Below are positions 18,381-63,959 of a DNA stretch of 64,000 bases, in pieces (within the stretch, counting starts at the first letter, position 1; each line of letters opens with the position of its first letter). Source of the DNA: an uncultured Myxococcales bacterium (GTDB lineage Bacteria > Myxococcota > Myxococcia > Myxococcales > UBA5297); NCBI GenBank assembly GCA_937910285.1, contig CALEOC010000170.1:26000-89999 (forward strand), in the 5' to 3' direction. A model generated the notes under the pieces. It made no database searches. It saw only the letters and a program-made list of their open reading frames with translations, and was not told where the DNA came from. The position numbers were made by a program, and so were the translations under genes.

Positions 18381-19919
18381 CTACCAGTCGCGCAGGTCGT
18401 CGTCGTCGCGCTCGCGCCTCTCGGAGGCCGGCACCACCTCGTCGTCGGCTCGCGGCGAGCGCGAGACGCGCCTGCGCTCCTCGATGCTCAGGTTCGACAG
18501 ATCGTCCTCGGCGATCCCTCGCCCGGTGATCGCCAGGAACAGGCCGGTGCCCCCGGCGATGATCGCGGCGAGATAGGAGACGTCGGCGATGAGCGCCGAG
18601 CGCCGCCCGTCGCTCTCGAGCGTCTTGTAGGTCTGGCTGATCTGAGGCTCCTGCAGGGTGTTGTAGCGGTCGTTCAGCGTGTTCGCGTCGAGCCCGAAGT
18701 AGACCCCCGAGCCGAGCGCGAGCGCTCCCAGACCGAGCAGAACATAACCGGTGTGCCGGGCGCGCCATTGGAACCCGCCTCCGGTCGTCGCGATAGCCTT
18801 GCCGCCCTCGCCGCGCCGGCGATCAGTCGAGAGGGCCTTGCGCAGGAAGCTGTCGGCGACCGGCTCGAAGCGCTGCTCGTCGTTGGGCAGCGGCTCCTCG
18901 ACATAGGCGTACTCGTGACCGTCGGCGGCGTCGATGCGCACCGCGAGGGCCGAGAGCTGATCTTTGTCCTTGGCCTGGACGCCGATGACCAGCACCTGGT
19001 CGACGCCGAGGTCCTTGGCGAGCTCGCGGGCGACCCTGTTGCGGCCCTTGCCGCGGAAGTCGTCCTTGATCCTGCGCACCTGGTCGCGGAAGCGCTCGAG
19101 CCCGGAGGCGGCCTGCAGGGTCTCGACCCGGGTGCCGCCGGCCCCCGGCCGCACGGTCTTCTGGAGCACCCTGTAGCCCGGGGAGACCACCGTGAGGACG
19201 TGGTCGCCGGCGGTCAGGTCGCGCAGCTCGACCGAAGAGATGCCGCGGTAGCGCCCGTCGATGTAGACCCGGCCAGGCACCGGGCGCACCTCGATGTCGA
19301 GGCCGAGGCCGCTTTGCGAGGTCAGGGCAGCGCGCCGGCGCTTGACCTGGGCGACGAAGTCCGGGGCGAAGAGGTTCGGGTCGAACGGCGTGTGCAGATC
19401 GAGCGGAAGGAGCCGCTCGACCTCGCGGTCGGCCGCGCCCGCCTCGGCGTTGGCGATGAGCGAGGCGATGCGCAGCATGCGCGCCCGGACCAGCTCGCCA
19501 AACGAGCGCGACAGGTCGCTCTTCTCATAGGAGGCGATCGCCTGATCGCACAGCTCCTTGGCCCGCTTCGGCTCGAGCTCGTCGTAGGCAGCGCGGGCCT
19601 TGCGGATCGCCTCGTCGGCGGCGGTCATCAGGCCGCGCTGGGTCTCGTGGCCCTCTGGATCGAGCGCCGAGGCCAGATCGCGCAGCTCCTGCCGCCCCAC
19701 CTCGAGGGCGAGCTTCTCGCCGAGATAGGCGAGCCTGGCAGCGGCGCGCGAGCTGTCGTCGAGGGCAAGGGCGACGACCGCCAGCCGAGGCGTGCGCGGC
19801 TTCGTCGGTGCGTAGAAGTCCGGCCCCGGCCCGCCGTCGGCGGCCCACGCAGGCGCCGCGAGGAGCCCGACCAAGACAGAAGCAACGGCCCGGAACCCCG
19901 AGCTGTGGCGATAGCGCAT
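18381..19919 (-). CDS. secreted/membrane-anchored PEGA-domain protein
   Basis: 512 aa. Signal peptide (VLVGLLAAPAWA). PEGA-like segment RPVPGRVYIDGRYRGISSVELRDLTAGDHVLTVVSPGY. Two C-terminal TM segments. Confidence 0.7.
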   Translation of the reverse strand: MRYRHSSGFRAVASVLVGLLAAPAWAADGGPGPDFYAPTKPRTPRLAVVALALDDSSRAAARLAYLGEKLALEVGRQELRDLASALDPEGHETQRGLMTAADEAIRKARAAYDELEPKRAKELCDQAIASYEKSDLSRSFGELVRARMLRIASLIANAEAGAADREVERLLPLDLHTPFDPNLFAPDFVAQVKRRRAALTSQSGLGLDIEVRPVPGRVYIDGRYRGISSVELRDLTAGDHVLTVVSPGYRVLQKTVRPGAGGTRVETLQAASGLERFRDQVRRIKDDFRGKGRNRVARELAKDLGVDQVLVIGVQAKDKDQLSALAVRIDAADGHEYAYVEEPLPNDEQRFEPVADSFLRKALSTDRRRGEGGKAIATTGGGFQWRARHTGYVLLGLGALALGSGVYFGLDANTLNDRYNTLQEPQISQTYKTLESDGRRSALIADVSYLAAIIAGGTGLFLAITGRGIAEDDLSNLSIEERRRVSRSPRADDEVVPASERRERDDDDLRDW

Positions 19920-25570: not shown

Positions 25571-27748
25571 GTGGGCAACTCTCAGACATTCGGCAAGTTT
25601 CATCTCGTAGGCAAGCTTGCCACCGGCGGCATGGCCGAAGTCTTCCTGGCCAAGGTCGATGGTCCAGCCGGTTTTCAGAAGACGCTCGTCCTGAAGCGCA
25701 TCCTTCCCCACCTCGCTGAGGACGAGCGCTTCGTCGAGATGTTTCTCAACGAGGCGCGCCTCGCCGCCCGTCTCAACCACCCGAACATCGTTACCATCTT
25801 CGAGCTCGGAGAGGAGGAAGACAGCTACTTCATCGCCATGGAGTACATCGACGGCCCGAACCTGCGCACCTTGGGCCGCAGCGCGGCCAGGTCCGGCCGC
25901 CCCATCCCGGTCGAGCACGCCGCGAAGATCATCTCTCTGGCGTGCGAAGGCCTTGGCTTCGCCCACGACTTCGCCGACGACAGTGGCCAACCGCTCAACC
26001 TCATCCACCGCGACGTCAGCCCCGACAACATCCTGCTGTCGCGCGCCGGAGGGGTGAAAGTCGTCGACTTCGGCATCGTGAAGGCAGCAAACCAATCGCA
26101 CCTGACGCAGACCGGCACTATCAAGGGCAAGCTTTCCTACATGGCACCCGAGCAGGCCCGCGGAATGCCGCTCGATCGCAGGGCCGACATCTTCTCGCTC
26201 GGCGTCGTTCTCTACGAGCTCATCGCGGGGATGAAGCCCTTCGATTCGACGAGCGAGGTCGCCGCACTGCAGGCCATCCTCTTCGCCCCCCCTGCACCTC
26301 TTCTCGAAAAGCGTCCCGACTGTCCCCCTGCGTTGTCGGCCATCATCGAGCGGGCTCTGCAGAAAGACCGCGAGGATCGCTACTCGGACTGCCGCGCCAT
26401 GCAGTTGGATCTCGAGCGCTTCCTGATGGAGTGCGGCACTCCGATCGGCGCCTACGATCTGTCGAAGCTGGTCGCCGAGCTGTCACCGTCCGGCCCGCCG
26501 GCATTGCGGACAGCCCCGCCGGGGCCAGCCATCCCCCCGCAACGGGACGCTGCGGCCGCCGCTTCTCCTCTGCCGCCGCAGGACGCTTCGCCCGACAGCG
26601 AGTTGGAGGAGCCCACCGAGCTCAGGCAAGAGCAGGAGTCACCGCCACCGGTCGCCCCCCGCGCCTGCTCCATTGCGGCTGAGGCGACGCGGCTCAAGTC
26701 CAAACCGGCGGACCCACCGTCCCTTGCGCGGCAGGTCCTCGAACATGCCGAGCAAAGGCCCGCCTCCGCTAGTCGACGAAGCAACAAGCCGGTGCTCATC
26801 GGCGTCAGCCTCGGCCTCGCGCTCGCCGTGGCGGCGGCCGGCTACGCACTCTTCGGCGACGAGCTGTCGACCGATGCAATGCGCCTCGCCCCCTCACTCG
26901 AGCCCACTCCCATCGCCGAGCAGAAAGCCGACACCCCGTCCGCCTTGGCGATCGAGCCGCCGGCGACACCTCCGGACACTGGTCGCGCCGCCGCAGCCGA
27001 GCCGGAGCCGACCGAAGGAGCGCCTCCGGGCACCGGTTCCACCGCCGCCGCCGCGCCGGAGCCGGTCGAAGAGGCGCCTCCAGGCACCGGTTCCACCGCC
27101 GCAGCCAAGCCGGAGCCGGCCGAAGAAGCGCCTCCGACCGTTGCGAAATCGCCCAAGCCTGACGCAACGAAGCCAACCTCAGGCAGACCGGGCCGTGGCT
27201 CTAGGGGCACCAAGACCGCGTCTTCCCTGCCGACGAACCCGGCCCCTGTCCGCGGACAACCCCTTCGGAGCGAGCCGGTTGTCGCTCAGGGTCGACTCAG
27301 CGAGAAGGATTCACCTCCGGTGGCTGTGCAGAGCGCCACTCTGGTCGTCCGGACGGACCCGCCCTGCCTGGTCAGCGTTGACGGCACGAACCATGGCACC
27401 ACACCGGTTCGGCTCGCGGAGCTATCGCCCGGGCCTCACGCCCTGGTGGTCCACAACGCGGCCGAGAACCTGGAGCGAAAGCTCACCGTCACCCTCGCGC
27501 CCGGCGAAAGCAGAACCGAGACGATCACCTTCGGCACTGCCAAGCTCGTCTTCCGCGTGCGGCCCTGGGCGCGAGTCGAAATCGACGGCAGGGCGCGCGG
27601 GGTGACCCCGCTTCCCGATGGGATCACTGTCTACGAGGGCGAGCACCGGGTGCGCTTGTACAATCCGGATTTGAAGAAGGAAGTTATCCGCACGGTATGG
27701 ATTAGGGCCGGGGAAGACCTGCCCATCAAAGCAGACCTCGAGAGGTAG
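25571..27748 (+). CDS. Ser/Thr protein kinase with long Pro/Ala linker and two C-terminal PEGA-like domains
   Basis: 725 aa with a GTG start. Kinase motifs [27 protein letters not shown] and YMAPEQ. A TM segment follows the linker. C-terminal PEGA-like segments ([15 protein letters not shown]..., [13 protein letters not shown]...). Confidence 0.9.
26997..27140 (+). repeat. in-frame 54-bp tandem repeat (about 2.6 copies) in the kinase linker
   Basis: CCGGAGCC recurs at 27003, 27057 and 27111. It encodes [18 protein letters not shown] / [18 protein letters not shown] / [10 protein letters not shown]. Confidence 0.7.
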
Positions 27749-29014: not shown

Positions 29015-29430
29015 GTCGTGTCCCTCCTGTGTCTTTCCCTCTGAGCACCGGCGAGCGGCGTCATCGCCGAGCGTCGGGCTTCGTGCTCTGCCAGTGCGTC
29101 CATCGCCCTCGGACAGCAGTGCGAACAGCTCCCGAAGGCCATCATCCACGAATTCGCATGACTCGTCAGTCTAAGCGAAGCGCCAGGACTACAACCAGTT
29201 TGCTCGACTTTCGAGGGGAATGCATTGCCGCTATCGCCCGCAACTCGCGCGATCGAAGCGATCGCCTTTCCGACCTTCGCCGAAGTCCTCTTGCCCGAGC
29301 CGAGATGTGCCCGCGCACGGAGCCATCGTCCTCATGACTGATTGCAGAGATGTACCGAGTTTAGTTGAAGCTGGGTGCATTCGAATCGGCCTACAGTAGG
29401 ACGTCAATTCCCCCGTGCCACGGAGACGCC

Positions 29431-32400
29431 ATGGCGAAGAGGTCAGCCTGTTGTCGTTGGACACTGAATTCGACCGTTCCTCTGGCCTTGCTGGCGCTCC
29501 TGCTGGCAGGCTGCTCTTCAGAAGTCCCCGCCGAGCACACACCCGGCGTAGACGCCGCGATCGTGCCCTGCGCGGGAAGCTGTGCCGATGGGCAGGTGTG
29601 CATCGCCGATCATTGCTACGACGAGAACTGCGCGGCCAAAAACTGCCGGGAGACGCAGGCTTGCGTCGAGAACGAGTGCGTCGCCCGAGCGTGCCTGACC
29701 GTTGACTGTCCCGAGAACGAACGGTGCGTCGAGGGGCTCTGCTATCCGGACGACTGCGCGAGCTCGAGTTGCCAGCCCGACGAAGTCTGCATCGGAGGCA
29801 CCTGCCAGGTCGTCGACTGTGTCGGCGTAAGCTGCACCGGCACCGACGTGTGCATCAAGGGCGACTGTTATCCGACCAGTTGCCAGGACGAGACCTGCGC
29901 GGCCGGCGAGGTCTGCGTCGAGGGCGAATGCACCGACCGGCGCTGCGTTGGAATCACCTGCGAAGGTGGGCACCTCTGCGTCGCAGGTAGCTGCTCCGGA
30001 TGCCCAGACGATGAGTACGAGCAAGACGGTGAATGCCTGCCACGCGGGGATCTCGGCGCCGCCTGCACGCAGAACCTCGCTTGCCTTTCCGACTGGTGCG
30101 TCGAGGGACTGTGCTGCGACACCGAGTGCGCGGGGCCCTGCCGAAGCTGCGCGATGACCCCCGGCACCTGTCTCGACCGCCCAGCCGGCTTCCCCGACCC
30201 GGCCTGCGGCGCCTTCGTCTGCGAAGAGGGCGGCACCTGCGCCACCGTCTGCACCGGGCCCGAGCAGTGTCATGCGGACGCCTTCTGCAACGGCAACACC
30301 ACCTGCGAGGCTGCCCGCGAGGACGGCACCTCGTGCCTCGCTTCGCAGGAGTGCGCAAGCGGCCACTGCGTCGACGGCTTCTGCTGCGAGACCGGCTGCG
30401 ACGAGCCCTGCGACTCCTGTGGCCAGGCGGGCCGTGAGGGCACCTGCGAGCCGATGACCGAAGGCAGCGTGGGAGACCCCGCCTGCGGGGCCTACCTCTG
30501 CGACGGCCAGACGGCGACGTGCCCGACCAGTTGCGAGACGAACCCGCAGTGCGCGATCACCCACTACTGCACCGAGGCCGGTGTCTGTTCGCCCCAGTTG
30601 GTCGACGGCGAGAGTTGCGCTGTGGCGGCCGAGTGCGTCAGCGGCCACTGCGTCGACGGGGTCTGCTGTGATTCGGCCTGCGAAGGCTCCTGCGACGCCT
30701 GCAACCTGGCCGGCACCGAGGGAGTCTGCTCCCTCGCTCCGGCCGGCAGCGCGGGCTCACCCTCTTGCTCTCCGTACTTCTGCCCCGGTGAGTCTGCGGC
30801 CTGCGCGACTGTCTGCGCCTCGAGTGCAGATTGCGCGAGGGACTACTTCTGCTCGATGCGCACGCCTACCGAGGGCACCTGCGAGCCCGCGACAGACCTC
30901 GGCGAGCCCTGCAGTGCATTAACGGCCGCTTGCTCCAGCGGCCACTGCGCCGACGGGGTCTGCTGCGACACGGCGTGTGATGACGCTTGCGCCTCCTGCA
31001 ATCAGCCCGCGCTGCGACCGGGGCATTGTTCGCCGCTGATCGCGGGGAGTGCGGGCGATCCGTCCTGCCGCCCTTTCCTCTGCGACGGCAGTAGCCAGAG
31101 CTGCCCGAGCACCTGCGACTCGGACGCCGATTGCGTGAGCACCCATTACTGCGACACACGCGACCCCACAACCTGCAGAGAGAAGCGAGCCAACGGCACC
31201 ACCTGCTCCGCCGACAACCGCTGCCTGAGCGGCCACTGCGTCGACGGGGTCTGCTGCGACACGGCCTGCGAAGGTGCCTGCGATGCCTGCAATCTGAGCG
31301 CTTCGGAGGGAACCTGCTCCCTGGCCCCGGACGGCAGCGCGGGCTCGCCCTCGTGCTCTCCCTATCTTTGCCCGGGCAACTCCGCGACTTGTGCGACGGC
31401 CTGCAGGTCGAACGCAGACTGCGCGAGCGGCCACTTCTGCTCGATGCGCTCGACCGAAATCGGCACCTGCGAGGCCCTGCTCGAGAACGGCCTGCGCTGC
31501 GCCGCGGATGCCGAGTGCGTCAGCGGCCACTGCGCCGACGGGGTCTGCTGCGACACCGCCTGCGACGGCGCCTGCGACTCCTGCAACCAGGCCAGCACTC
31601 GGCCTGGGCATTGTTCGCCGGTGCCCGCGGGCAGCCCGGGCGATCCGGCCTGCGCTCCCTACCTCTGCGACGGAAGCCTGCTGGCTTGCCCGCGTGAATG
31701 CTCATCGAACGCAGACTGCATAGACGGCCACTGGTGCACCGATATGAGACCCAGCCGTTGCGAGGAGAAGAGGCCCAACGGCAGTGCCTGCACCGTCGAC
31801 GCGAGCTGCCAAAGCGGCCACTGCGTCGACGGGGTCTGCTGCGACTCGAGCTGCGACGGAAGCTGCAACGCCTGCAACCTGGCCGGCTTGGAGGGCAGGT
31901 GCTCCCTCGCGCCCGCAGGAGCCATCGGTAACCCGCCGTGTGAGCCTCTTGTTTGCTCGGGCACCGCTTCGGTCTGCCCGCTCGCCTGTTCCTCCGACGC
32001 CAACTGCGCAAGCGGCTTCTGGTGCGACACGCGCGATGGGAGTTGTAGAGAGCAATCCGCCGACGGCGTCGCCTGCACTGCGGACAACCGCTGCCTGAGC
32101 GGCCACTGCGTCGACGGGGTCTGCTGCGACACGGCCTGCGACGGCGCCTGCGACTCCTGCAATCAGCCCGCGCTGCGACCGGGGCATTGTGCCGCGCTGC
32201 CCGCGGGTAGCCCGGGCGATCCGTCCTGCACTCCGTACCTCTGTGATGGCTCCCTGACCAAGTGCCCGCGCGAGTGCTCATCGAACGCAGACTGCATAGC
32301 CAGCCATTGGTGCCCCCCTTTCAGGCCCAGCCACTGCGAAGAGAAGATGCCCGACGGCAGTGCGTGTACCGCTGACGCGAGCTGCCAGAGCGGCCACTGC

Positions 32401-33219
32401 GTCGACGGGGTCTGCTGCGACACAGCCTGCGACGGAAGCTGCAACGCCTGCAACCTGGCCGGCTCGTTGGGTCGCTGCGCCCTCGTCCCCGCCGGGTCCG
32501 CGGGCGAGCCGGCCTGCGAGCCCTTCGCCTGCTCAGGCAGCTCGTCGGCCTGCCCGACAGCGTGCAACTCGGACACGACCTGCGCCGCCGGCTTCTGGTG
32601 CAATGGCACCCCCGAGCCGAACGAATGCATGCCGAAGCTCAGAAACAGCGCCTCCTGCATCGCCCACAACCGCTGCCTGAGCGGCCACTGCGTCGAAGGG
32701 GTCTGCTGCGACTCGGCCTGCGAAGGACCCTGCAATTCCTGCAGGACGTTGGGCTACGAGGGAACCTGCCGCAACGTGGGAATGGGTGGCCTGGGAGAGC
32801 CGTCCTGTGCGCCGTACCGCTGCGCAAGTGGCTCGGCCCAGTGCGCGACGAGATGTACGGTCACCTCCGAGTGCCGCTCGCCCGCGTCGTGCATCGACAA
32901 CGCCTGCGTCCTATTCAGCGCAACCAAGTGCACCATCGCGGGTGAAACCTACGCTCAAGGGGCCACCAATCCGCTCAATGACTGCCAGCACTGCGACGCC
33001 TATCTGACCAGAACCGACTGGAGCGACAGAAGCGCAGGCACGAGCTGCAATCACGGCTTGGGAAGCTGCGATGGCCGCGGCCGCTGTCTGCCGTATCCCT
33101 GCTTCGGGACCTGCGGTTCAGCCGAATGCACCGGCCAGCCCTGTGGGAACGGATGTATCTGCTCGGCAGGCCAGTGCGTTTCCCCGAGTAATCCATCCAT
33201 CTTCTGTGCCCAGTTCTAA
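29431..33219 (+). CDS. giant Cys-rich repeat lipoprotein (about 10 modules of about 95 aa containing CxSGHCVDGVCC)
   Basis: 1262 aa from the ATG at 29431. Lipobox LLLAGC. The N-terminal part has about 18-aa C..C....C..G.C mini-repeats. Ten modules follow, each with (S/D)GHC(V/A)DG(V/F/L)CC(D/E)xxC..xCxxC, PAGSxGxPxCxPYxC and xCxSxxDCxxxxxC. The modules resemble the Dickkopf-N-like bacterial Cys-rich repeat. Confidence 0.85.
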   Translation: MAKRSACCRWTLNSTVPLALLALLLAGCSSEVPAEHTPGVDAAIVPCAGSCADGQVCIADHCYDENCAAKNCRETQACVENECVARACLTVDCPENERCVEGLCYPDDCASSSCQPDEVCIGGTCQVVDCVGVSCTGTDVCIKGDCYPTSCQDETCAAGEVCVEGECTDRRCVGITCEGGHLCVAGSCSGCPDDEYEQDGECLPRGDLGAACTQNLACLSDWCVEGLCCDTECAGPCRSCAMTPGTCLDRPAGFPDPACGAFVCEEGGTCATVCTGPEQCHADAFCNGNTTCEAAREDGTSCLASQECASGHCVDGFCCETGCDEPCDSCGQAGREGTCEPMTEGSVGDPACGAYLCDGQTATCPTSCETNPQCAITHYCTEAGVCSPQLVDGESCAVAAECVSGHCVDGVCCDSACEGSCDACNLAGTEGVCSLAPAGSAGSPSCSPYFCPGESAACATVCASSADCARDYFCSMRTPTEGTCEPATDLGEPCSALTAACSSGHCADGVCCDTACDDACASCNQPALRPGHCSPLIAGSAGDPSCRPFLCDGSSQSCPSTCDSDADCVSTHYCDTRDPTTCREKRANGTTCSADNRCLSGHCVDGVCCDTACEGACDACNLSASEGTCSLAPDGSAGSPSCSPYLCPGNSATCATACRSNADCASGHFCSMRSTEIGTCEALLENGLRCAADAECVSGHCADGVCCDTACDGACDSCNQASTRPGHCSPVPAGSPGDPACAPYLCDGSLLACPRECSSNADCIDGHWCTDMRPSRCEEKRPNGSACTVDASCQSGHCVDGVCCDSSCDGSCNACNLAGLEGRCSLAPAGAIGNPPCEPLVCSGTASVCPLACSSDANCASGFWCDTRDGSCREQSADGVACTADNRCLSGHCVDGVCCDTACDGACDSCNQPALRPGHCAALPAGSPGDPSCTPYLCDGSLTKCPRECSSNADCIASHWCPPFRPSHCEEKMPDGSACTADASCQSGHCVDGVCCDTACDGSCNACNLAGSLGRCALVPAGSAGEPACEPFACSGSSSACPTACNSDTTCAAGFWCNGTPEPNECMPKLRNSASCIAHNRCLSGHCVEGVCCDSACEGPCNSCRTLGYEGTCRNVGMGGLGEPSCAPYRCASGSAQCATRCTVTSECRSPASCIDNACVLFSATKCTIAGETYAQGATNPLNDCQHCDAYLTRTDWSDRSAGTSCNHGLGSCDGRGRCLPYPCFGTCGSAECTGQPCGNGCICSAGQCVSPSNPSIFCAQF

Positions 33220-53065: not shown

Positions 53066-53869
53066 ATGACCGCACGAATCGGCGAAATCCTGGTACGGGC
53101 CAAACTGATCGATCAGCTTCAGCTCCGCTCGGCGCTGGCCGACCAGCAGCAGTGGGGCGGGCGCCTTGCGAAGATTGTCGTCGAGAAGCGCTTTGCCAAA
53201 GAGTCGGCGGTCATCGACGTGCTGTCCAAGGCGCTCGGTGTGCCGAGAGTCGAGCTGGACAAGGTCGAGAAGGATTCGGGCGCGCTGCTCAAGGTGGATC
53301 CCAACTACGCGAAGGAGAAGGCGGTCTTCCCCTGCGCGCTCAAGGACAACGGCAAGACGCTCTGGGTGGCCATGGCCGACCCGAGCGACATCCCTACCCT
53401 CGACGACTTGGTCATGAAGACCGGCGCGCGCGTCAGGCCTGTCATCGCGGGCGAGACCGAGATCATCACAGCGATCGAGCGCCACTACTTCGGCCGCGAT
53501 CCCAGCATGACCCCGCAAGCTTTCGGGTCGATCGACGCCCTCGGCGCGGGCGACGAAGAGGGCAAGCTCGTCGACATGGCGGGCAATACGATCATCAAGA
53601 GCATCAAGGACCTCACGACCTCCGCGCCACTACCGGCCGCGCGGCCGCCGCCTTCGCCGGCGGCGGCTGTGTCGACGGCCAACAGCATTCTCGATGGGCT
53701 CCTCGGAGGAGGAGGCGCGCCGTCACTGACCCCGGCGGACAAAGAAAGAGTCCGCGTCATCCAGGACCAGCAGGAGAAGGGCGCCCGCATTCTGCGCGCG
53801 GTGCTCGAGCTGTGCCTCGAGAAGGGCTACTTCCGGGTCGAGGAATACCGCGCGAAGCTCCTAGGCTGA
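53066..53869 (+). CDS. stand-alone GspE/MshE N-terminal (T2SSE_N/MshEN) domain protein
   Basis: 267 aa. IGEILVRAKLIDQLQLRSALADQQQWGGRLAKIVVEKRFAKESAVIDVLSKALGVPRVEL...DPSDIPTLDDL is the typical T2SSE_N pattern. No ATPase domain follows. Confidence 0.8.
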   Translation: MTARIGEILVRAKLIDQLQLRSALADQQQWGGRLAKIVVEKRFAKESAVIDVLSKALGVPRVELDKVEKDSGALLKVDPNYAKEKAVFPCALKDNGKTLWVAMADPSDIPTLDDLVMKTGARVRPVIAGETEIITAIERHYFGRDPSMTPQAFGSIDALGAGDEEGKLVDMAGNTIIKSIKDLTTSAPLPAARPPPSPAAAVSTANSILDGLLGGGGAPSLTPADKERVRVIQDQQEKGARILRAVLELCLEKGYFRVEEYRAKLLG

Positions 53870-54396: not shown

Positions 54397-54987
54397 CTAG
54401 ACGTCGAGCTCGTCGCCTCTGACCGGCTGCAGCGAGGCCACCCCACGCTCGATGAGCGAAAAGGGCACGTGAGCAAACCGGCTCCATTCGGGCCCGAGCG
54501 CGCGTCTCAGATCCCAGACAAGAGTCCCCTGCGCCTTGATCTGGCTCAGCACCCAGTGCTCGGGGCCACTGAGCACGATGTCTTTCGGCGGGAGCGGATA
54601 GAGGCGCGCCGTGTAGGCGATGGCTGTCGGGTGCTGCTTCAGCCGGATGGCAAGCGCCGGATTGCTGATGACGAAGGTCTCGTAGAGGTTGAGCGCGGCT
54701 TCAAAGGCCTCGGGTTTGCCGACGTTGAAGGCGATGCCGACCGAAACCCCGTCCTCGTGAACCACCCTGCCCTTGAGCTTCAGGGGGGCTCCACCTTCGG
54801 GCCGAAGCAAAAGATCGAGGTCGGTTCCCGCCTCGGGCAACGAGGCGCCTTCGAAGCGCATGCCACCCGGCGACAGATCGACCGCGTGGCCAACATAGCT
54901 GTAGGAGAGGTCTTCGAGCTCGACCGCAAAGCGCACGGGGATGCGCGCGTTCGCACGCCGGTCGCGAATCTTCTCTTCGAGGGCCAT
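54397..54987 (-). CDS. PilZ domain protein (putative c-di-GMP receptor)
   Basis: 196 aa. RxxxR motif (RRANARIPV) and D/NxSxxG motif (DLSPGGMRF) at PilZ spacing. Starts 39 nt downstream of the kinase gene on the same strand. Confidence 0.8.
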   Translation of the reverse strand: MALEEKIRDRRANARIPVRFAVELEDLSYSYVGHAVDLSPGGMRFEGASLPEAGTDLDLLLRPEGGAPLKLKGRVVHEDGVSVGIAFNVGKPEAFEAALNLYETFVISNPALAIRLKQHPTAIAYTARLYPLPPKDIVLSGPEHWVLSQIKAQGTLVWDLRRALGPEWSRFAHVPFSLIERGVASLQPVRGDELDV

Positions 54988-55026: not shown

Positions 55027-56490
55027 CTATTCCGAAGCCTTCGACTCGGCGCCGCTCGCGACCCGGGTCTCCGAGGAGAGAATCAGGTCGCCACGCTTGA
55101 GGTAACTGCCGTCGCCGAAGGCGGAGTAGAAGTCGTCGAGGACCGCCTCGAAGTCGGGGTATCGGGCCTCCCGGCGGTCCTGGGTCATCTTGTCAAAGAG
55201 ACCGTCGAGCGCCTCGGGGGCCTTGTCGTTGACCGCCGAGGGCAGAGGTGAGCGGCGCCCGGGGAGCTGGCCGGTGAGCATCTCGTAGAAGAGGATCCCC
55301 ACCGCATAGACGTCGGAGGACGGCCCCAAGTCCTTGGTCGAGCGGGCGAGCTGCTCGGGGCTCATGTAGCCCATCCCGCCGGTGCCGACGAAGACCTGCG
55401 GCATCCCCTTGGCGGTGTCCACCTCGATGACCCGCGAGAGCCCGAAGTCGGCGAGCTTCGCGTTGCCCATGGCGTCGAACAGGATGTTCTCAGGCTTGAT
55501 GTTGCCGTGTGCCAAGCTGTGCGCGTGGGCGGCCCGCAAGCCGTAGGCGACCTGCAAGAAGATGCGGATCGCCTCTTCGGTAGGCAGCCCCTTGCCGCCG
55601 GAGGCCGCCAGTCGGTCGGCCAGGCTGCCACCGGGGCACAGCTCGACCACGAAGAAGGGACGCGCGACATCGCAGTTCTGGTCGAGGACCGGCACGAGCG
55701 ACGGGTGGCGCACCAGCGCCTGGGCGCAGATCTCGCGTTTCAGGCGCTTGATCACCTCGCCTCGCTGCAAGAACGAGAAGTAGCCGAAGATGTCTTTCAG
55801 CTCCTTGATCGCCACGTCGAGGCCGAGCGCGGTGTGACGGCCCCGGTAGACGGTACCGAGGGGGCCCTGGCCGATAGCGTCGTATTTGACGTAGCGCAGG
55901 TCGATCTCCTGGCCCTTGGGCTCGGGCCGCGCCTCGTTCTTGAGCGCGGGCAGCGGCGAAGCCGCCGGGAAGGAAGGCGCCCCCTCGACCTCCCGGCCGA
56001 GCCGAGACCGCGGCGCCGAGCCGCTCGGACGAGGCTCGGAGGCTTGGGCCGCCGAAGCCGGGGCAACCTTGGTCGGCTCCTCGTGCACGGGGTCGGGAGG
56101 CGGCAAGGGCAACGCGGGCGGCGGGGTGTGCTCCTCGGCAATCATCGAGGAGTCGGCGAGGATTTCGGCCACCGGAGCGTCGATCTCGGCGAGGCGGCTC
56201 GCGAAGTACTCCTGGACCGCGTCGATGAAGCGCTCGCGCCTGTCGCCATCGACGATGCGCTCGCCGTCGGGAGTAAGCTGCAGGCAAGCTTCGCGATCCA
56301 TCCCGATGAAGTGGTACTTGCGCAGAAAGAAGAAGTAGGTGTCGAACTCGAGCGACACCACCGGCTCGAAGGCGCTCTTGACGTCGGCGAGCTTGTTCGA
56401 GCGCCCCGAGCGCGCATTGTCGCGAAGGGTCGACAGAATGGTGAGGGCCTCACCGGCAATCTTCTCGCGGGTCATCGCTGCTCCGGCCAT
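55027..56490 (-). CDS. Ser/Thr protein kinase with uncharacterised N-terminal domain
   Basis: 487 aa. The kinase domain is in the C-terminal half (GQGPLGTVYRG, VAIKEL, HGNIKPENILF, DFGLSRV, YMSPEQ). The N-terminal domain of about 130 aa is unassigned. GGAGG upstream. Confidence 0.88.
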   Translation of the reverse strand: MAGAAMTREKIAGEALTILSTLRDNARSGRSNKLADVKSAFEPVVSLEFDTYFFFLRKYHFIGMDREACLQLTPDGERIVDGDRRERFIDAVQEYFASRLAEIDAPVAEILADSSMIAEEHTPPPALPLPPPDPVHEEPTKVAPASAAQASEPRPSGSAPRSRLGREVEGAPSFPAASPLPALKNEARPEPKGQEIDLRYVKYDAIGQGPLGTVYRGRHTALGLDVAIKELKDIFGYFSFLQRGEVIKRLKREICAQALVRHPSLVPVLDQNCDVARPFFVVELCPGGSLADRLAASGGKGLPTEEAIRIFLQVAYGLRAAHAHSLAHGNIKPENILFDAMGNAKLADFGLSRVIEVDTAKGMPQVFVGTGGMGYMSPEQLARSTKDLGPSSDVYAVGILFYEMLTGQLPGRRSPLPSAVNDKAPEALDGLFDKMTQDRREARYPDFEAVLDDFYSAFGDGSYLKRGDLILSSETRVASGAESKASE

Positions 56491-57858: not shown

Positions 57859-59199
57859 TCAACTTCTCCGGGCCGCGCGCGCTTCGGGCTCGGGCACTCC
57901 AGCTCGTCGGAACAACTCTATCGCCCGGTCGTGCTGCCCGGCAGCGAGCGCCGCGTCGCCGGCAAGCTCCCATGAGCCCAGTTGCTCGTACAGCCGCAAG
58001 GCCTCCTCGGGCCGGCCTGCCTCTATCCAGCTCTGGGCCGCTGCCGGCAGGTCGCCTGCCCGCTCGCACCAGCGGGCGGCCTCGCCCAAATCGCCCGACT
58101 CACGCGAGCGCCTCGCGCTCGCCTGCGCAAAGCCGAGCGCCTGTTCATCGAGCCCGGCCTGCTGCAGCCACTGGAAGGCAAGATCGGGCCTTCTCTCGCG
58201 CGCGAGGTCGAACGCACGCTCGTGGAGGCCGAACTTTCTGAGCACTTCGCCGGCAGCGGGGAGATCGCCTCGAGCCAGACGAAGCTCGGCCTCGGCGGCG
58301 ACGAGCCGCTCCATCCCTGCCAGATCGCCCGCCTTGCGCAAGCACTCGGCGGCCTTGAGCGTGCGGCCCGCGCGCTCGTAGGCCTGCGCCGCGTCGAGCC
58401 ACTGTTCAGCCCGCTCGTAGAGCCTGCCTATCTCGACGAAGTCGCCGCGGCCCGCGAGCAGGTCGAGGTAGAGGTCGCCCTGCTTGTGGCGCAACAGGAG
58501 CTCCCGCGCCCCCTTCGGTCCGACGGCGGTCGCGAGCTCGCGGACGGCCTCCAGATTGCCGGCCAGCAAGGCGACGCGCAGCGCGGCCCGCAGATCGCCC
58601 GCGGCGCGCCACGGCTCGAGCGCCGAGGAGTAGTCCTGGTGCTGCTCAAAGAGCCTGGCGGCGTCGGCGTGCCGGCCCTCACGCGCGGCAAGCGCGGCCG
58701 CCTCCTGCCATTCGCCTGCCCTCTGCAGCATCTTCATCGCCGGCTCGGTGCGGCCTGAAGCGGCGATGAGCAACGCGGCGCGCCGCTCGTCGCTCACGGC
58801 CCGCCAGATCTCCCCGAGGGTGAAGAGGATCTCCTTGCGCCTGGCCTCCTTCTCCGCGTCCTCCTGCGGGGGTTGACGGCCGGCCCGCAGCAAGGCGGTG
58901 AAAAGGCGGGTTCGCGCATCGAAATCGAGCTCGTCGATGCTGCCGAGCCGCAGCGCCTGCAGCCGCTCGAGGACCTTGGCAAACGGAGCCCTCTGGGCCT
59001 CGAAGTCGCCGGTCGTCAACGGGCGCTCGGCCTCCTTGAGCGCGCCGAGAATCGCCGCCTCGGCCCCGGCGCGTGCGCTCCGGGGTGGTTCGCCCCCTCG
59101 CCCGTCGCGGGCTCGCGGCGGCCCGCGCCTGCCAGAGCCTCGTCTCTCGACACCAGGGGCCCTCGGCCCAGAGCTGCCACTCTTCGAGTCTCGATTCAT
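57859..59199 (-). CDS. TPR-like helical-repeat protein
   Basis: About 446 aa. Repeated A/L/R/E-rich helix pairs with GD(L/F)xxA motifs (AGDLRAAL, KQGDLYLDL, RGDFVEIG, AGDLAGM, RGDLPAAG, SGDLGEAA, AGDLPAAA). The start is uncertain: the first 60 or so codons have atypical codon usage. Confidence 0.55.
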   Translation of the reverse strand: MNRDSKSGSSGPRAPGVERRGSGRRGPPRARDGRGGEPPRSARAGAEAAILGALKEAERPLTTGDFEAQRAPFAKVLERLQALRLGSIDELDFDARTRLFTALLRAGRQPPQEDAEKEARRKEILFTLGEIWRAVSDERRAALLIAASGRTEPAMKMLQRAGEWQEAAALAAREGRHADAARLFEQHQDYSSALEPWRAAGDLRAALRVALLAGNLEAVRELATAVGPKGARELLLRHKQGDLYLDLLAGRGDFVEIGRLYERAEQWLDAAQAYERAGRTLKAAECLRKAGDLAGMERLVAAEAELRLARGDLPAAGEVLRKFGLHERAFDLARERRPDLAFQWLQQAGLDEQALGFAQASARRSRESGDLGEAARWCERAGDLPAAAQSWIEAGRPEEALRLYEQLGSWELAGDAALAAGQHDRAIELFRRAGVPEPEARAARRS

Positions 59200-59371
59200 G
59201 TGGTCAAGGGTGCGTTGGCCAGCCGAATCCGTCAACGACCATCGAGCCTTGAAAGCCTTCAGGCCAATCGACCGATGCGAGTCCGGAAGTCCCGGCGTGA
59301 TAATCGATCGGGGCACCATGGCGACTGACAGCAGAGGAAAGACGCCGATGGCAGAACTGGAGGGCGGGAGC

Positions 59372-60070
59372 ATGCGGGCGCGACACGACAAGGAGCGAGG
59401 CCAGGCCGCCGTCGAGACCGCCCTGACGCTCCCGATGATGCTCTTTGCGCTGCTGGGCATCTTGCAGCTCACCCTGGCCTACCACGCCCGCATCCTCACC
59501 GAATACGCCGCCTTCAAGGCCGCCCGCGCCGGGAGCGTCTATCGCGCCGACTGCCGAAGGATGCAGCAGGCGGCGCTGATGGCGCTCGTCCCCTCGATGC
59601 CCACGGTCAAGGCAACGCCGCGCGAACAGTTCGTGCGAGCGGCCACCGCGGTGACGACCTGGCGCTTCAACCGGAGCAGCAAGTTCACGCCGTTGGTCTT
59701 CATCGACTACCGCATCGAGAACATGCGCCGGCCCTTTGACGTGCAGCTCGATCCGAACGCGGACGCACCGATGCGCCTTCGCATACGGCTCGCGTACTTC
59801 TTCGAGTACCGCATCCCCATGGTCAACTGGATCATGACGAAGTACTGGCTTGCCGTGAACACGGGGCGGCGCTGGGCTTCGACCGATCCCACGATGGCGA
59901 TGCTGCAGGCCAAGCAACCGGTCGCCATGGTGAGCACCGATGAGCTGGTGACCAACGCCCAGGCGGCGATCGCGCGCAGCTACTTCACCACGCCCATCGT
60001 CGCCACCTGGTCGATGCGGATGATGAGCGACCCGATGCCCAGGGAGCGGGGCGATGGGCGCTGCCGGTGA
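59372..60070 (+). CDS. TadE-like pseudopilin
   Basis: 232 aa from the ATG at 59372 (GGAGG 8 nt upstream). N-terminus ERGQAAVETALTLPMMLFALLGILQL matches the TadE-like domain. Confidence 0.75.
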   Translation: MRARHDKERGQAAVETALTLPMMLFALLGILQLTLAYHARILTEYAAFKAARAGSVYRADCRRMQQAALMALVPSMPTVKATPREQFVRAATAVTTWRFNRSSKFTPLVFIDYRIENMRRPFDVQLDPNADAPMRLRIRLAYFFEYRIPMVNWIMTKYWLAVNTGRRWASTDPTMAMLQAKQPVAMVSTDELVTNAQAAIARSYFTTPIVATWSMRMMSDPMPRERGDGRCR

Positions 60071-60089
60071 GCCGGAGGGAGGCCGCTGA

Positions 60090-61724
60090 ATGAATCGCTG
60101 GTCGAGACTCGAGAGACGGCTGGGGCGGCGTCGGGGTCAAGCGCTGACCATCGCGGCGCTCATCATGCTGCTCACCTTCGTGGCGGTGATGCTCACCTTC
60201 GCCATCGGCAACCGCACCCGCGAGAAGGTCAAGCTGCAATCCATCGCCGACGCGGGCGCCTACAGCCTCGCGGTGGCCGGGGCCCGCACGTTCAATTTCA
60301 CGGCGTGGTCCAACCGCGCCCACGTCGCGCACGACATCAGCATCCTGTCCATCCACTCGCACCAGAGCTACCTGAGCTGGTACGACAACATGCTGCAGGC
60401 GCAGGGGACCGCCCATTACATCGCGGCCGGGGTCATGGGCGCGATGTGCATTCCCTGCGCCCTCTCGGGCGTCTGCTGCCAGTCGTGCAGCAACGCGGGC
60501 AAAGCGGTCAAGGTCGGCAAGTATTACCGCAACGAAGTCCACAAGGAATTCCACCGCGACTACTTCACGGATACGAGCTACCACGACCATCTGCACAGGG
60601 GCGCCAAGGCGCACATGGGGTTGATTACAAATACCGGGCTCGCCCAATGGACGATGCTCGCCGATCTGTCCGCCAAGGCGACATCGCAGACCTTCGCCGA
60701 AGACGCCGCGAAGCTCATCGACAATCGGGCCCGCCCCGCCGGTGCGGCCGGACTCGCCAGCGCTCGAAACATCAACGGGGCCATCGGCTGGCACCCGGCC
60801 AACGCCGAGGAGTGGCTGGAGATCAACTCCGCCTCGCGCTGGCCGCAGTGGATCACCCGGCGCGGGTACGTCATCGAAGGCGGTCACTGGTGGCTCAAGT
60901 ACGCCGAGGCCGCGCAGAAGGGCACCCCCTGCGCCGTGCTGCCCATCCCGCCGCACAACAGCGGCAACGCGAAGATCCTCGGGATCAGCCCCCAGGGCAG
61001 CGAAGCGCGCGCCTTCAACGCCATCAAGAAGGCGGTCAATCGCAAGGAGCCGCACGGGCGGGATGCCTGGTCCGGCTTCAGGGACGGAGGAGGCCATGCC
61101 TTCGGCGCCTGGGACTCTGGCGGCGCTTCGGCGCTGTGGATCTGCGACTGCCCTGCCCCCGGCTACATGACCGCAAAGGGCGCCGCCTACTCGGACCCGA
61201 ACGACCGGGGGCACCAGCACGGCTGGCACCTCGTCGACGGCAAGCCGGTGAGCGCCTACACCGGCCATGGGCTCGGCGGCTGCGACAGCAACCGCGCCTG
61301 CGGGATCTACCAAGGCCACATGCGCTACAAGATGGCGACCGAGCGTTCGACCGGCGGGAGCACCGGCAATCCCTACCTCTGGCACCAGCCTCACACGGTC
61401 GCGTTCGTCACCAAACAGGCCAATCGCAGGCGAGAGGTCTGGGACTTCAACTTCCGCGCGACCTTGCCCCTTCCGGTCGCCTTCACGACCACCAACTCCC
61501 GGGGCGACGACCCGCCGATGGCCGCGATCGCCGGCGGGCTTGTCTACTACCACAAGCCCAACATCGGAGAGAGCGACGGCTGGAAGGAGCCCCCGAGTCT
61601 GTGGAACCCGTTCTGGCGCGCCAAGCTGCACCCGGTGACCCCGGGCGATGCGCGCCTGGCTTTCATCGGGCACGAGTCGTTCAACGCCTACAGCGTTCTT
61701 GGCCACAAGGCCCTCAACTACTAG
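60090..61724 (+). CDS. TadG-like (Tad N-terminal domain) protein with large Cys/His/Trp-rich domain
   Basis: 544 aa with GGAGGGA SD upstream. N-terminus RRGQALTIAALIMLLTFVAVMLTFAIGNRTREKVKLQSIADAGAYSLA matches the TadE/G-like 'Tad' domain. The remaining 480 or so aa are unassigned (MCIPCALSGVCCQSCSNAG, LWICDCPAPGY, many H and W). Confidence 0.7.
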   Translation: MNRWSRLERRLGRRRGQALTIAALIMLLTFVAVMLTFAIGNRTREKVKLQSIADAGAYSLAVAGARTFNFTAWSNRAHVAHDISILSIHSHQSYLSWYDNMLQAQGTAHYIAAGVMGAMCIPCALSGVCCQSCSNAGKAVKVGKYYRNEVHKEFHRDYFTDTSYHDHLHRGAKAHMGLITNTGLAQWTMLADLSAKATSQTFAEDAAKLIDNRARPAGAAGLASARNINGAIGWHPANAEEWLEINSASRWPQWITRRGYVIEGGHWWLKYAEAAQKGTPCAVLPIPPHNSGNAKILGISPQGSEARAFNAIKKAVNRKEPHGRDAWSGFRDGGGHAFGAWDSGGASALWICDCPAPGYMTAKGAAYSDPNDRGHQHGWHLVDGKPVSAYTGHGLGGCDSNRACGIYQGHMRYKMATERSTGGSTGNPYLWHQPHTVAFVTKQANRRREVWDFNFRATLPLPVAFTTTNSRGDDPPMAAIAGGLVYYHKPNIGESDGWKEPPSLWNPFWRAKLHPVTPGDARLAFIGHESFNAYSVLGHKALNY

Positions 61725-61741
61725 CCCCGCCGGAGGACGCC

Positions 61742-62743
61742 ATGCGCAAAGGCTTCAAGACCGAGCAAGGCGCGGCCGCCGCCGAGCTCGCGCTCGCCAC
61801 CATGCTCATCGTGCCGATGGCCCTCTATTCGATGTACGTCGGCGAGGCCTTCGTGGCGGGGCTCAAGGCTCAAGAGGCTGAGATCGCCGCAGCCTGGGAG
61901 ATTACGGCTTACCGGCTGCACAACTTCCGCTCGGGCAGCTACACCGGCCGCTTCGGCAGCGCCGCGAACCGCTCCGCGGACTCGGTCCACAACGACCTGC
62001 TCGACTTCGACTCGTTCGACCGCAGCAACAGCCACGGCAGGGTCAACGCGGTCAGCGAGTACGAGTTCAAGGAACTGCGCTGTAGCAGGCGCGGCGGCAG
62101 CTCGGCCGGCAACGGCATGGGACCGGGCTGGGGCCTCGGGGGCAGCTTCTTGTACTCGGACGGCTGGGTCGGTTGCCAGGCGCGGGTCGAGTTCAGGAAC
62201 CGCTTCCTTCCCCGCAACCCGCACAGCGAGTTCTTCCGCAACTCGGAGCTGCTGCCCAATGAGGTTTCGAAGCTCGAGCTCTGCGGTCTGGGCAACGATC
62301 CGCAAGGCTGCCGCGCGAGTCGCAACCGCGGGATGGCCCTGCTCACCGGTGACTGGGGGCTCGACAATCCGAGGTACAACCCCTTGGGCACCGAGAAGAA
62401 CCAAGAGTATTGGAACGTCGGCAACGACATCTACAAGTTCTTCGGCGGCGCCTATGCCGGCACGACTGCCATCCTGCTCGGCTTCACCCCGCTCGTGTAT
62501 GCGTGGGACCAGGCCAAGACGAGCACGTTCCGCATGACCTATCGGAAGACGATCAAGGAGCAGCAGGACGTCAGCACGGCAGCCGGCACGTTCAAAGCGC
62601 ACGCCTCGCCGCATTGTGACGAGGACCGCCCAGCCATCGAAGAGTACACGCACCGCATCAGGAACATGAGCGCCGAGGTCTATTCCGAGCGGACCATCGG
62701 CAACTATCTCGGCAAGAATCAGGCGGAGTGGAACCTGCAATGA
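61742..62743 (+). CDS. TadE-like pseudopilin with extended C-terminal domain
   Basis: 333 aa with GGAGGA 5 nt upstream. N-terminus EQGAAAAELALATMLIVPMALYSMYV is TadE-like. Confidence 0.65.
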   Translation: MRKGFKTEQGAAAAELALATMLIVPMALYSMYVGEAFVAGLKAQEAEIAAAWEITAYRLHNFRSGSYTGRFGSAANRSADSVHNDLLDFDSFDRSNSHGRVNAVSEYEFKELRCSRRGGSSAGNGMGPGWGLGGSFLYSDGWVGCQARVEFRNRFLPRNPHSEFFRNSELLPNEVSKLELCGLGNDPQGCRASRNRGMALLTGDWGLDNPRYNPLGTEKNQEYWNVGNDIYKFFGGAYAGTTAILLGFTPLVYAWDQAKTSTFRMTYRKTIKEQQDVSTAAGTFKAHASPHCDEDRPAIEEYTHRIRNMSAEVYSERTIGNYLGKNQAEWNLQ

Positions 62744-63750
62744 GCCGCAGCCCGCGCCAATTGCTCAGCCTCCGGGCGGCCGCCACGCTCCTATTCGGGC
62801 TTGGCCTCGGCCTTCTTGCCGGCCGGCTGACAGGCGCCGAGGCGCTCGACTCCCGGGGCCAAGCCCAGCCCGACGCGCTGGCGGCCACGCGGCACGAAGG
62901 CGGCACACCGGCGCTACGCTCCGAGGAGCGCGTCTGCGGCCCTGACCCGTTTTTCGAGGAGAGCGCCCTCTGCGTCGACGAGACCGAGGAGGATCTGGCT
63001 TTTCGCGAGCTCGAACGGATTCTGAGGCGCGAGTCGGGTCTGCTTGCCGGCCGGCTCGGCCAGGTGCGCACCGGGCAGGAGGCGCTGCGCGAGCGCTTCC
63101 CCGCGTTTCCACAGGCGTACACGCCCATCGTCTCCATGGGCGAGCAGGTGGTCGCCAACGGCGTCCCGATGGACCTCGCCTTTTTCGAGACCCGGGCCGA
63201 TGCGCCGCAGGTCCTCGAGTACTACACCCAGCACTTCGGCTCACGCGGCTGGTCATGGAGCGGGCTCAAGGAGAACTACCAGGTCATCCCCCACCCGGCG
63301 ATTAGCGCCATCGACCTCGAGGAGCGCGTGCAGATGACGGTGATGGTCCTGGAGAACCGCGACGAAGGCTACAGCACGGTCTTCCTTGGGCTCGCCGACA
63401 TGCTGCCCGAGGCCCAGCGGCCGCTCGAGGACGTCGGCGATCTTCCCGTGTTCCCGGGCACTGCCCCCTTGGCCCTGCGCTCGTTCGACGTCGAAGCTGC
63501 GACAAGCCTGACCGTCACCTTCACGGTGCCCGAGGCCCACGAGACCGTGGCGAGCTTCTACCGGGAGAGGATGCGCGAGCTCGGCTACTCGGAGGACGAG
63601 CCCACGCCCGCCGTCACCGACGAGGCCGGCGGGAGGCTCCAAACCCTGCGCTTTGCGTCCGCCCATGGGCGCTGGACGCTTGCCCTCGCCTCCTACGACG
63701 GCGAAACCGGGGTCACGGCCGTCAATTCGAGTCAGGAGGTGCAGCAATGA
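62740..63750 (+). CDS. hypothetical single-pass membrane protein in the Tad-like cluster
   Basis: About 336 aa. The ATG overlaps the upstream stop (ATGA); an alternative GTG start is at 62728. One N-terminal TM segment (LLFGLGLGLLAG). I recognise no domain. Confidence 0.55.
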   Translation: MSRSPRQLLSLRAAATLLFGLGLGLLAGRLTGAEALDSRGQAQPDALAATRHEGGTPALRSEERVCGPDPFFEESALCVDETEEDLAFRELERILRRESGLLAGRLGQVRTGQEALRERFPAFPQAYTPIVSMGEQVVANGVPMDLAFFETRADAPQVLEYYTQHFGSRGWSWSGLKENYQVIPHPAISAIDLEERVQMTVMVLENRDEGYSTVFLGLADMLPEAQRPLEDVGDLPVFPGTAPLALRSFDVEAATSLTVTFTVPEAHETVASFYRERMRELGYSEDEPTPAVTDEAGGRLQTLRFASAHGRWTLALASYDGETGVTAVNSSQEVQQ

Positions 63751-63959
63751 AGCGCCTAACCCTCGAGCCGTGCAGGCTCCTCGCAGCTCTGCTTCGCGAC
63801 GAGGACGGACAGGCCATGGTCGAATACTCGGTGACGACCATTCTCCTGCTGGGCTTCCTCGCCGTCGGCGTCTCCTGGCCGCTGACACGCAACCTGTTCG
63901 ATGGCCTTCAGGGATACATCGACCTTTATTTCTACGCGCTCAACCTCGCCCTCGGCTAG
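63747..63959 (+). CDS. flp: Flp/Fap-family type IVb pilin
   Basis: 70 aa. The ATG overlaps the upstream stop, with AGGAGG 8 nt upstream. LLRDEDGQAMVEYSVTTILLLGFLAVG fits the Flp prepilin motif (G / xxxxEY followed by a hydrophobic helix). Confidence 0.7.
   Translation: MKRLTLEPCRLLAALLRDEDGQAMVEYSVTTILLLGFLAVGVSWPLTRNLFDGLQGYIDLYFYALNLALG

Follow-up and report, generated by a model that had tools for sequence, protein, structure and literature searches.

We describe here a five-gene cassette at positions 59372-63959 of a 64,000-nt stretch of DNA from an uncultured Myxococcales bacterium (contig CALEOC010000170.1; the whole of this stretch is referred to below as the window). We judge it likely, with a probability of roughly 80%, that the cassette is a stand-alone 'Tip' operon of the myxobacterial Kil-type pilus, a Tad-like (type IVc) filament, and that the machinery of this pilus is encoded elsewhere in the genome. 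We favor a Tip operon equipped with its own adapter Flp pilin and accessory protein because the cassette reproduces the architecture of the tip3 operon of Myxococcus xanthus gene for gene, stands alone, is restricted to Myxococcales, occurs as multiple paralogues, and combines a conserved base with a variable tip.

The M. xanthus Kil Tad-like predation pilus is a filament of the pilin KilP (Herrou et al. 2025, PMC12075869). Heterotrimeric Tips, which are interchangeable, prime the filament and cap it; each is built from KilM (TadE-like), KilN (large and TadG-like) and KilL (TadF-like) (PMC12075869). The Tips are encoded by four clusters, three of which lie away from the kil machinery, with the genes in M-N-L order (mxan_0354-0356, 0738-0740, 1146-1148 and 4660-4658); KilN has a large distal domain without homologues in the PDB, and many disulfides are predicted in the Tip complexes (PMC12075869). 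The tip3 operon consists of kilM3 (mxan_1146), kilN3 (mxan_1147), kilL3 (mxan_1148), mxan_1149 and kilO (mxan_1150), the last of which encodes a poorly expressed 59-aa Flp that serves as the adapter for Tip3 only (PMC12075869). The kilO gene is positioned two genes from kilL3 in the same operon (bioRxiv 10.64898/2026.08.20.745974). Tip1, Tip2 and Tip4 depend on KilK (mxan_4655), which is encoded in kil cluster II three genes from kilL4.

The genes of the window cassette, here termed g1 to g5, all lie on the + strand, exactly where a first-pass annotation of the window had placed five co-directional genes. g1 (59372-60070, 232 aa) is a TadE-type minor pilin in the KilM position, for which a public gene call uses an alternative start at 59348, giving 240 aa. 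g2 (60090-61724, 544 aa) is a large TadG-like minor pilin in the KilN position and the presumed tip-capping subunit, and g3 (61742-62743, 333 aa) is a TadE/TadF-like minor pilin in the KilL position. g4 (62740-63750, 336 aa) is a predicted exported or membrane-anchored accessory protein, and g5 (63747-63959, 70 aa) is a Flp-type short pilin in the KilO position that presumably acts as the adapter between tip and filament. Public annotation describes the cassette proteins as hypothetical. Successive genes are spaced by 19, 17, -4 and -4 nt, with an ATGA sequence at both overlaps (62740 and 63747), and the starts are preceded by GGAGG-type Shine-Dalgarno sites, bearing out the tight coupling claimed in the first-pass annotation; the N-terminal motifs quoted there are also present. 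The G+C content at third codon positions is 0.81-0.91 per gene, as expected for real genes in DNA of 69% GC. The same annotation had considered the locus to be cut by the window end. This is not the case: the g5 stop codon occupies 63957-63959 and the window ends 41 nt later, so that the cassette is whole and it is just the downstream context that is missing. The presumed promoter region, inferred to occupy 59200-59371, is the divergent intergenic stretch between g1 and a - strand TPR gene (57859-59199 according to the gene call on an identical contig), and a scan for sigma-70 promoters and terminators returned nothing above chance.

Comparison with an 82% identical relative (locus L002) gives ratios of nonsynonymous to synonymous substitution rates (dN/dS) of 0.23-0.40 across all five genes (0.24 for g1), which indicates that selection on the cassette is purifying though rather relaxed; ratios against more distant relatives were saturated and were discarded.

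The Tad-type (type IVc) pilin-like character proposed for these genes is supported by a TadE match of g1, a near-threshold Tad match of g2 and G-x4-E motifs. A motif scan of all open reading frames (ORFs) found the class-III G-x4-E motif followed by a hydrophobic stretch in g1, g3 and g5 and in none of the other real ORFs of the window, and g1, g2 and g3 each have a single N-terminal hydrophobic segment. The match of g1 to the Pfam TadE family has an E-value of 1.5e-11 and that to an NCBIfam TadE subfamily one of 0.0013, and its G10-Q-A-x-x-E15 motif (GQAAVE) is invariant in the 17 relatives of the family alignment. In g3, Gly10 and Glu15 are invariant in 16 relatives, as are two Cys residues. 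Weak matches to Pfam TadE are returned by 6 of the 16 g3 family members (best E-value 0.0019), and alignment of the g3 and g1 families using hhalign covers the N-terminal 58 columns only (E-value 7e-4, probability 26%).

The short pilin g5 carries a G21-Q-x-x-x-E26-Y27 motif (G21-Q-A-M-V-E26-Y27 in the window) in which the Gly, Gln, Glu and Tyr residues are invariant in 13 relatives and which is followed by a hydrophobic helix. Its mature length of ~49 aa fits the 45-60 aa range of Flp pilins, and one source names a member of its 90% cluster 'Flp pilus assembly pilin Flp'. The C-terminus is also conserved among relatives (YxDLYFYALNLAxG), and an adapter-Flp family with a conserved C-terminus is a modestly new point.

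The g2 family retains an R-G-Q sequence followed by a hydrophobic helix, with position +5 always hydrophobic and never Glu. In type IV filament systems the subunit that lacks Glu5, as exemplified by GspK, is the tip cap, and by this analogy g2 is the presumed tip-capping subunit. Although the sequence of the window protein scores just short of the Pfam Tad threshold, as detailed below, its relative P0033 exceeds it at 31.6 bits. Conservation is distributed unevenly along the protein, being 47-76% in residues 21-100 and 441-520 and 17-44% in residues 101-440, and insertions of 28-40 aa in the middle region of relatives produce short (~540 aa) and long (~650-680 aa) forms. An AlphaFold2 model of g2 (predicted local distance difference test score, pLDDT, 70.5; predicted template modelling score, pTM, 0.63) has a very long N-terminal helix, two further long helices and a C-terminal beta sheet. 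A Foldseek search of the PDB with this model produced chance coiled-coil matches only (best E-value 0.66), and an hmmsearch of PDB sequences with the family profile returned nothing at E-values up to 10. The conserved base, the variable middle and the lack of a PDB relative in these searches are in keeping with a pilus-tip module, a plausible role for this protein; the first-pass annotation had suggested that its large domain could be a tip adhesin or a metal-binding module. Its description there as giant and rich in Cys, His and Trp stands for His (5.0%) and Trp (3.5%), whereas the Cys content is only mildly raised (1.8%; 10 Cys, partly conserved) and 544 aa is not giant.

Among 1.84 billion representative sequences the g2 family profile matches 2376 proteins at E-values <= 0.001, of which ~17 match along their full length; the others share mainly an N-terminal module of ~80 residues (G16 Q17 ... 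Q50 D54 A57 Y58 S59 A65 R66 N69 N75 R76). A cluster look-up of 10 distant relatives included one protein named as a TadE/TadG family member from Myxococcales and no M. xanthus locus tags. Ten His residues (H81, H91, H151, H155, H175, H380, H410, H488, H514 and H528) are invariant or nearly so in 24 family members down to 28% identity. Their conservation is limited to the close family and is not kept in the wider TadG/KilN-like superfamily, making the His-rich distal region of g2 a modestly new point that applies within this family only.

The fourth gene is most plausibly a cassette-specific exported accessory protein that helps in assembly. Its AlphaFold2 model (pLDDT 57.5) comprises a transmembrane helix (residues 9-30), a low-confidence, disordered linker (residues 31-110) and two tandem beta-beta-alpha-beta-beta-beta (alpha/beta) domains (residues 131-220 and 245-330). 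The window protein has no match in Pfam or NCBIfam scans; PF27226 (AF_1845) is precomputed for g4 homologues, whilst our own Pfam scan returned no match even for those homologues. Fold matches in the PDB (Foldseek) are weak, with template modelling scores <= 0.25, and comprise TplEi/Tli4 (type VI secretion system immunity proteins), DcrB, PA1624, Eag/SciW and PsbP, and the family profile finds nothing among PDB sequences at E-values up to 10. A scan of metagenome contigs with g4 alone returned eight loci, every one of which carries cassette genes around g4; five contain the whole of g1-g5 and two are short fragments. We regard g4 as a fixed component of Flp-bearing Tip operons, which is a further modestly new point. 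The M. xanthus gene in the equivalent position, mxan_1149, receives no mention in the Kil Tip papers cited here, supplements included, and our data single out this gene as a conserved candidate for study.

We mapped the cassette by tblastn with the five proteins in 18 loci from genomes or assemblies and in 8 from metagenomes. Of the former, L002-L017 were obtained by scanning genome contigs, and L018 (from Myxococcus stipitatus) and L019 were reached through homologues; the metagenome loci are those of the scan with g4. Every sufficiently long locus has the order g1-g2-g3-g4-g5, and the five ORFs are intact in ~25 Myxococcales loci. The same order and a terminal 66-67-aa Flp are found even in the distant loci L026 and L027, of which L027 is complete and L026 lacks the 5' end. 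Named genome records that carry the cassette are all Myxococcales or were deposited as Deltaproteobacteria; L001 and L019-L027 are without a taxon name. The flanks are unrelated between the different contexts of the cassette. Two metagenome-assembled genomes (MAGs) contain two diverged copies each, namely SBF912SR1HQ0023 (L002 and L010) and NC_groundwater_1653 (L003 and L004), paralleling the multiple Tips of M. xanthus. The proteins of L010 are ~31-45% identical to those of the window for g1-g4 and 49% identical for g5. Overall, at least four diverged lineages of the cassette can be told apart, the large protein comes in short and long forms, and some genomes hold two copies.

A small secreted Cys-rich protein of ~100 aa is encoded after g5 in L001 (10422-10739, ~208 nt beyond g5 and outside the window) and in L002 (9646-9966). 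In L016 a Cys-rich small ORF of similar kind (13519-13797; E-value 4e-7) follows the g4 analogue. Two further loci, L012 and L015, lack a recognisable g4 and have instead a Cys-rich small ORF between g3 and g5 (L012:13599-13916; L015:13653-13964), which differs from the kinds found in L001, L002 and L016. The small Cys-rich protein may be an optional sixth component of the cassette.

The surroundings of the cassette were examined for Tad machinery within the window and beyond it. The public contig L001 matches the window without a difference for 10,254 nt and reaches 1.39 kb past its end; there, a 105-aa secreted Cys-rich ORF comes after g5, followed by a convergent Ser/Thr kinase gene of which the contig includes the 3' end. 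In L002 the sequence continues for 8 kb, in which this kinase is encoded along with a TPR protein, a PEGA-like protein and an ABC transporter. Neither the 1.39 kb of L001 nor the 8 kb of L002 contains Tad machinery. On the other side of the cassette the called genes encode TPR, DUF2804, kinase, PilZ and MshEN-domain proteins. Pfam scans of 20 further window ORFs identified housekeeping and signalling genes only, and visual inspection of the 25-33 kb region showed genes for a kinase and for a Cys-rich repeat protein. Neither the Pfam-scanned window ORFs nor the precomputed Pfam assignments for 53-59 kb include a gene for a secretin, a secretion ATPase, a platform protein or a prepilin peptidase. 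Machinery is likewise missing beside the cassette in M. stipitatus (L018) and in a JGI contig (L019). Nor does a Tad machinery family figure among the 25 most frequent families listed for 95 proteins that flank the cassette in 17 loci, a comparison in which single occurrences could be overlooked.

We considered the upstream TPR, DUF2804, kinase, PilZ and MshEN genes as possible parts of the system and rejected them, as they are common to L002 only and are not found in L018 or L019. The PilZ-kinase-DUF2804-TPR neighborhood recurs in L002, the closest relative, and in no other cassette locus. A stand-alone 267-aa MshEN-domain protein (53066-53869, +) is encoded next to a PilZ-domain protein and a Ser/Thr kinase (54397-54987, -, and 55027-56490, -), an association that suggests cyclic di-GMP signalling.

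These data are difficult to reconcile with the interpretation in the first-pass annotation that the genes form the end of a complete, atypically ordered tad locus whose machinery lies just past the window. The position of g5, 41 nt from the window end, left room for this idea, and extending the sequence past 64000 for cpaA/tadV, rcpA, tadZ, tadA, tadB and tadC had been proposed as a check. The DNA supplied by L001 and L002 contains none of this machinery and refutes the idea for the adjacent sequence, whilst the 59 kb upstream (in its Pfam-scanned ORFs), the M. stipitatus locus, the JGI contig and the families recurring in 17 loci offer no machinery either. Nor is the gene order unusual or inverted, as had been thought: it is the norm for this cassette across Myxococcales and for the published Tip operons. 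A complete tad locus is thus very improbable. The lack of adjacent machinery, together with the rather fast evolution of the genes (dN/dS 0.23-0.40), might alternatively suggest that the cassette is what is left of a pilus locus that is decaying or no longer functional. We consider this the least credible explanation of all, given ORFs that are intact in ~25 loci, invariant processing motifs, coupled starts and dN/dS values below 1.

A more substantial challenge, albeit still an unlikely one, is that the cassette makes its own filament. In that case g5 would be the major pilin of a distinct Flp pilus, serving for example in adhesion or biofilm formation, for which g1-g3 would provide the priming and a shared or distant Tad machinery the assembly. 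All features of the Flp motif are indeed present in g5 together with a strongly conserved C-terminus, a motif scan found no KilP-like gene in the window, and a predation role for the cassette is proposed by analogy. Against this, g5 is the last gene of the operon, is translationally coupled to g4 through an ATGA overlap and lacks its own promoter, an arrangement that suits the stoichiometry of a minor pilin, and the equivalently placed KilO of M. xanthus is poorly expressed and is an adapter. The tip itself could also be an effector, with the conserved His residues of g2 forming a metal-dependent active or binding site and g4 acting as a chaperone or immunity-like factor, a role put forward because the sole structural echoes of g4, weak as they are, come from TplEi/Tli4 immunity proteins and Eag/DcrB/PsbP-fold chaperones. 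We regard this proposal as doubtful; if true, the tips of Tad pili would share their logic with toxin-immunity systems.

Starting from the observed gene content, motifs, conservation, stand-alone context, pattern of variable and conserved regions and restriction to Myxococcales, the operation of the cassette as a Kil-type Tip operon can be modelled on M. xanthus, from which heterotrimer formation, priming, the adapter role and contact-dependent killing would carry over (PMC12075869). g1, g2 and g3 would be exported as prepilins, and g1 and g3, together with g5, would be cleaved on the C-terminal side of the conserved Gly by a prepilin peptidase whose gene lies elsewhere. The N-terminal helices of g1-g3 would then bundle to form a heterotrimer that primes and caps a filament of the major Flp pilin, this pilin and its polymerising machinery likewise being encoded elsewhere. 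With no Glu at position +5, g2 would sit at the very top, its variable middle domain facing the target (prey) surface. g5 would be a dedicated adapter Flp forming the joint between tip and filament, and g4 a cassette-specific exported accessory, most plausibly an assembly helper.

Several observations weigh against assigning the cassette to the Kil-type Tips. The window copy of g3 gives no significant match to Pfam or NCBIfam, remaining below threshold; g2 scores 21.3 bits against Pfam Tad (PF13400), just under the cut-off of 22.3; and g5 matches neither Pfam Flp_Fap (PF04964) nor NCBIfam, the best match of its family to Flp_Fap being a marginal one from a single relative (E-value 0.049). Homology to KilM, KilN, KilL and KilO is argued from architecture, motifs and Pfam domains and not from direct alignment. 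Published primers give KilO termini (MRKSLRPS...VIQAPI) that are unlike those conserved in the g5 family (...YFYALNLAxG). No M. xanthus protein occurs among the close g2 homologues in two word-limited searches (12 and 31 matches). A Kil machinery in the window organism is presumed, the DNA analysed spanning 64 kb of its genome, and the g1-g2-g3 heterotrimer is proposed by analogy, the structure models being of single chains.

The window contains other features besides the cassette. A 1284-aa secreted protein (29365-33219, +) has many Cys-rich repeats (C-x-SGHC-VDGVCCD-x-AC-type units), and the opposite-strand ORFs at 31.3-32.9 kb are apparent shadows of its gene. A 377-aa protein (4691-5824, -) gives weak matches to DndB (28.9 bits, just under the 29.1 cut-off) and GmrSD_N, which are DNA-modification or restriction-associated. 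In a 725-aa Ser/Thr kinase (25571-27748, +) a long linker is rich in Pro and Ala and the C-terminal region is rich in beta structure, and a separate PEGA-domain protein is encoded at 18381-19919 (-). Kinases are unusually dense in the window, with at least three present; high kinase density is common in Myxococcales.

Placed alongside known systems, the cassette is largely explained by the recent literature on Kil-type Tips. It shares with canonical tad loci (Aggregatibacter, Pseudomonas, and Caulobacter with CpaJ/K/L) the TadE and Tad (PF13400) N-terminal domains, the G-x4-E motifs and one large TadG-type member. The tadE/F/G genes of those loci, however, end a contiguous flp-tadV-rcp-tadZABCD locus, whereas the window cassette is an independent operon with its own Flp and an extra exported protein, and none of the peptidase, secretin, ATPase and platform genes expected of a complete Tad/Flp locus stands beside its pilins. 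This distinction has consequences for annotation, in that myxobacterial tadE/tadG-like clusters with an Flp gene and no machinery should be read as Tip cassettes and not as broken tad loci.

The priming and capping of a filament by a few minor pilins is established knowledge for the GspK-GspI-GspJ complex of the type II secretion system and for the type IVa pilus minor pilins with PilY1, and GspK lacks Glu5, as does g2. The cassette pilins are nevertheless of type IVc/Flp class, with no sequence relationship to those proteins and no N-methylation-type domain. A type II secretion or type IVa pilus pseudopilin set is ruled out, since the matches are to TadE/Tad domains and not to N-methylation-type ones and are accompanied by a short Flp.

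The cassette shows several features of Kil-type Tips. The triad has the order TadE-like, large TadG-like, TadF-like, corresponding to kilM-kilN-kilL; g1-g3 have a leader, a Gly cleavage site (R-G-Q in g2) and a hydrophobic alpha1N helix as in the M. xanthus prepilins; and g2, like KilN with its variable distal domain, has a variable middle for which the PDB offered no homologous structure, and Cys residues that could form disulfides. The genes are encoded apart from the machinery, are restricted to Myxococcota and occur, as in M. xanthus, in several paralogous sets per genome. Tip1 (mxan_0354-0356) and Tip2 (mxan_0738-0740) differ in being three-gene clusters for which no Flp gene is reported. 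A fifth, unnamed type of Tip is also on record, and the window family may correspond to it. The presence of the five-gene cassette in M. stipitatus is accompanied in another strain of that species by at least kilA-H, kilP, the Tip1 genes and the KilM of Tip2, as listed in Supplementary Data 1 of PMC12075869. Flp-bearing Tip operons appear to be a diversified Myxococcales family that extends beyond the four M. xanthus Tips, and such diversity is consistent with a role of interchangeable pilus tips in tuning prey range.

The closest parallel is tip3, although the window cassette is probably not Tip3 itself. A close M. xanthus homologue of g2 was not found: homologue searches with the window protein and its M. 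stipitatus counterpart as queries returned M. stipitatus, another Myxococcus species, Pyxidicoccus, Hyalangium and MAGs, with no Corallococcus or other heavily sequenced relative among the 12 + 31 matches. Given that the M. stipitatus and Hyalangium members share 44-50% identity, an orthologue in M. xanthus, Corallococcus or another such relative would be expected to exceed 50-60%. A published 24-mer kilO primer had no match in metagenome contigs. Since no close M. xanthus relative was found, the cassette is probably a further Tip family that is new at the sequence level. In its organization it follows tip3 closely. Both are single operons running from a TadE-like gene through a large TadG-like gene, a TadF-like gene and a further gene to a ~60-aa Flp, with the Flp two genes after kilL (g3-g4-g5 corresponding to mxan_1148/1150, and joined here by ATGA overlaps), and both lie apart from the machinery in Myxococcales and encode a large protein whose distal domain is without PDB homologues.

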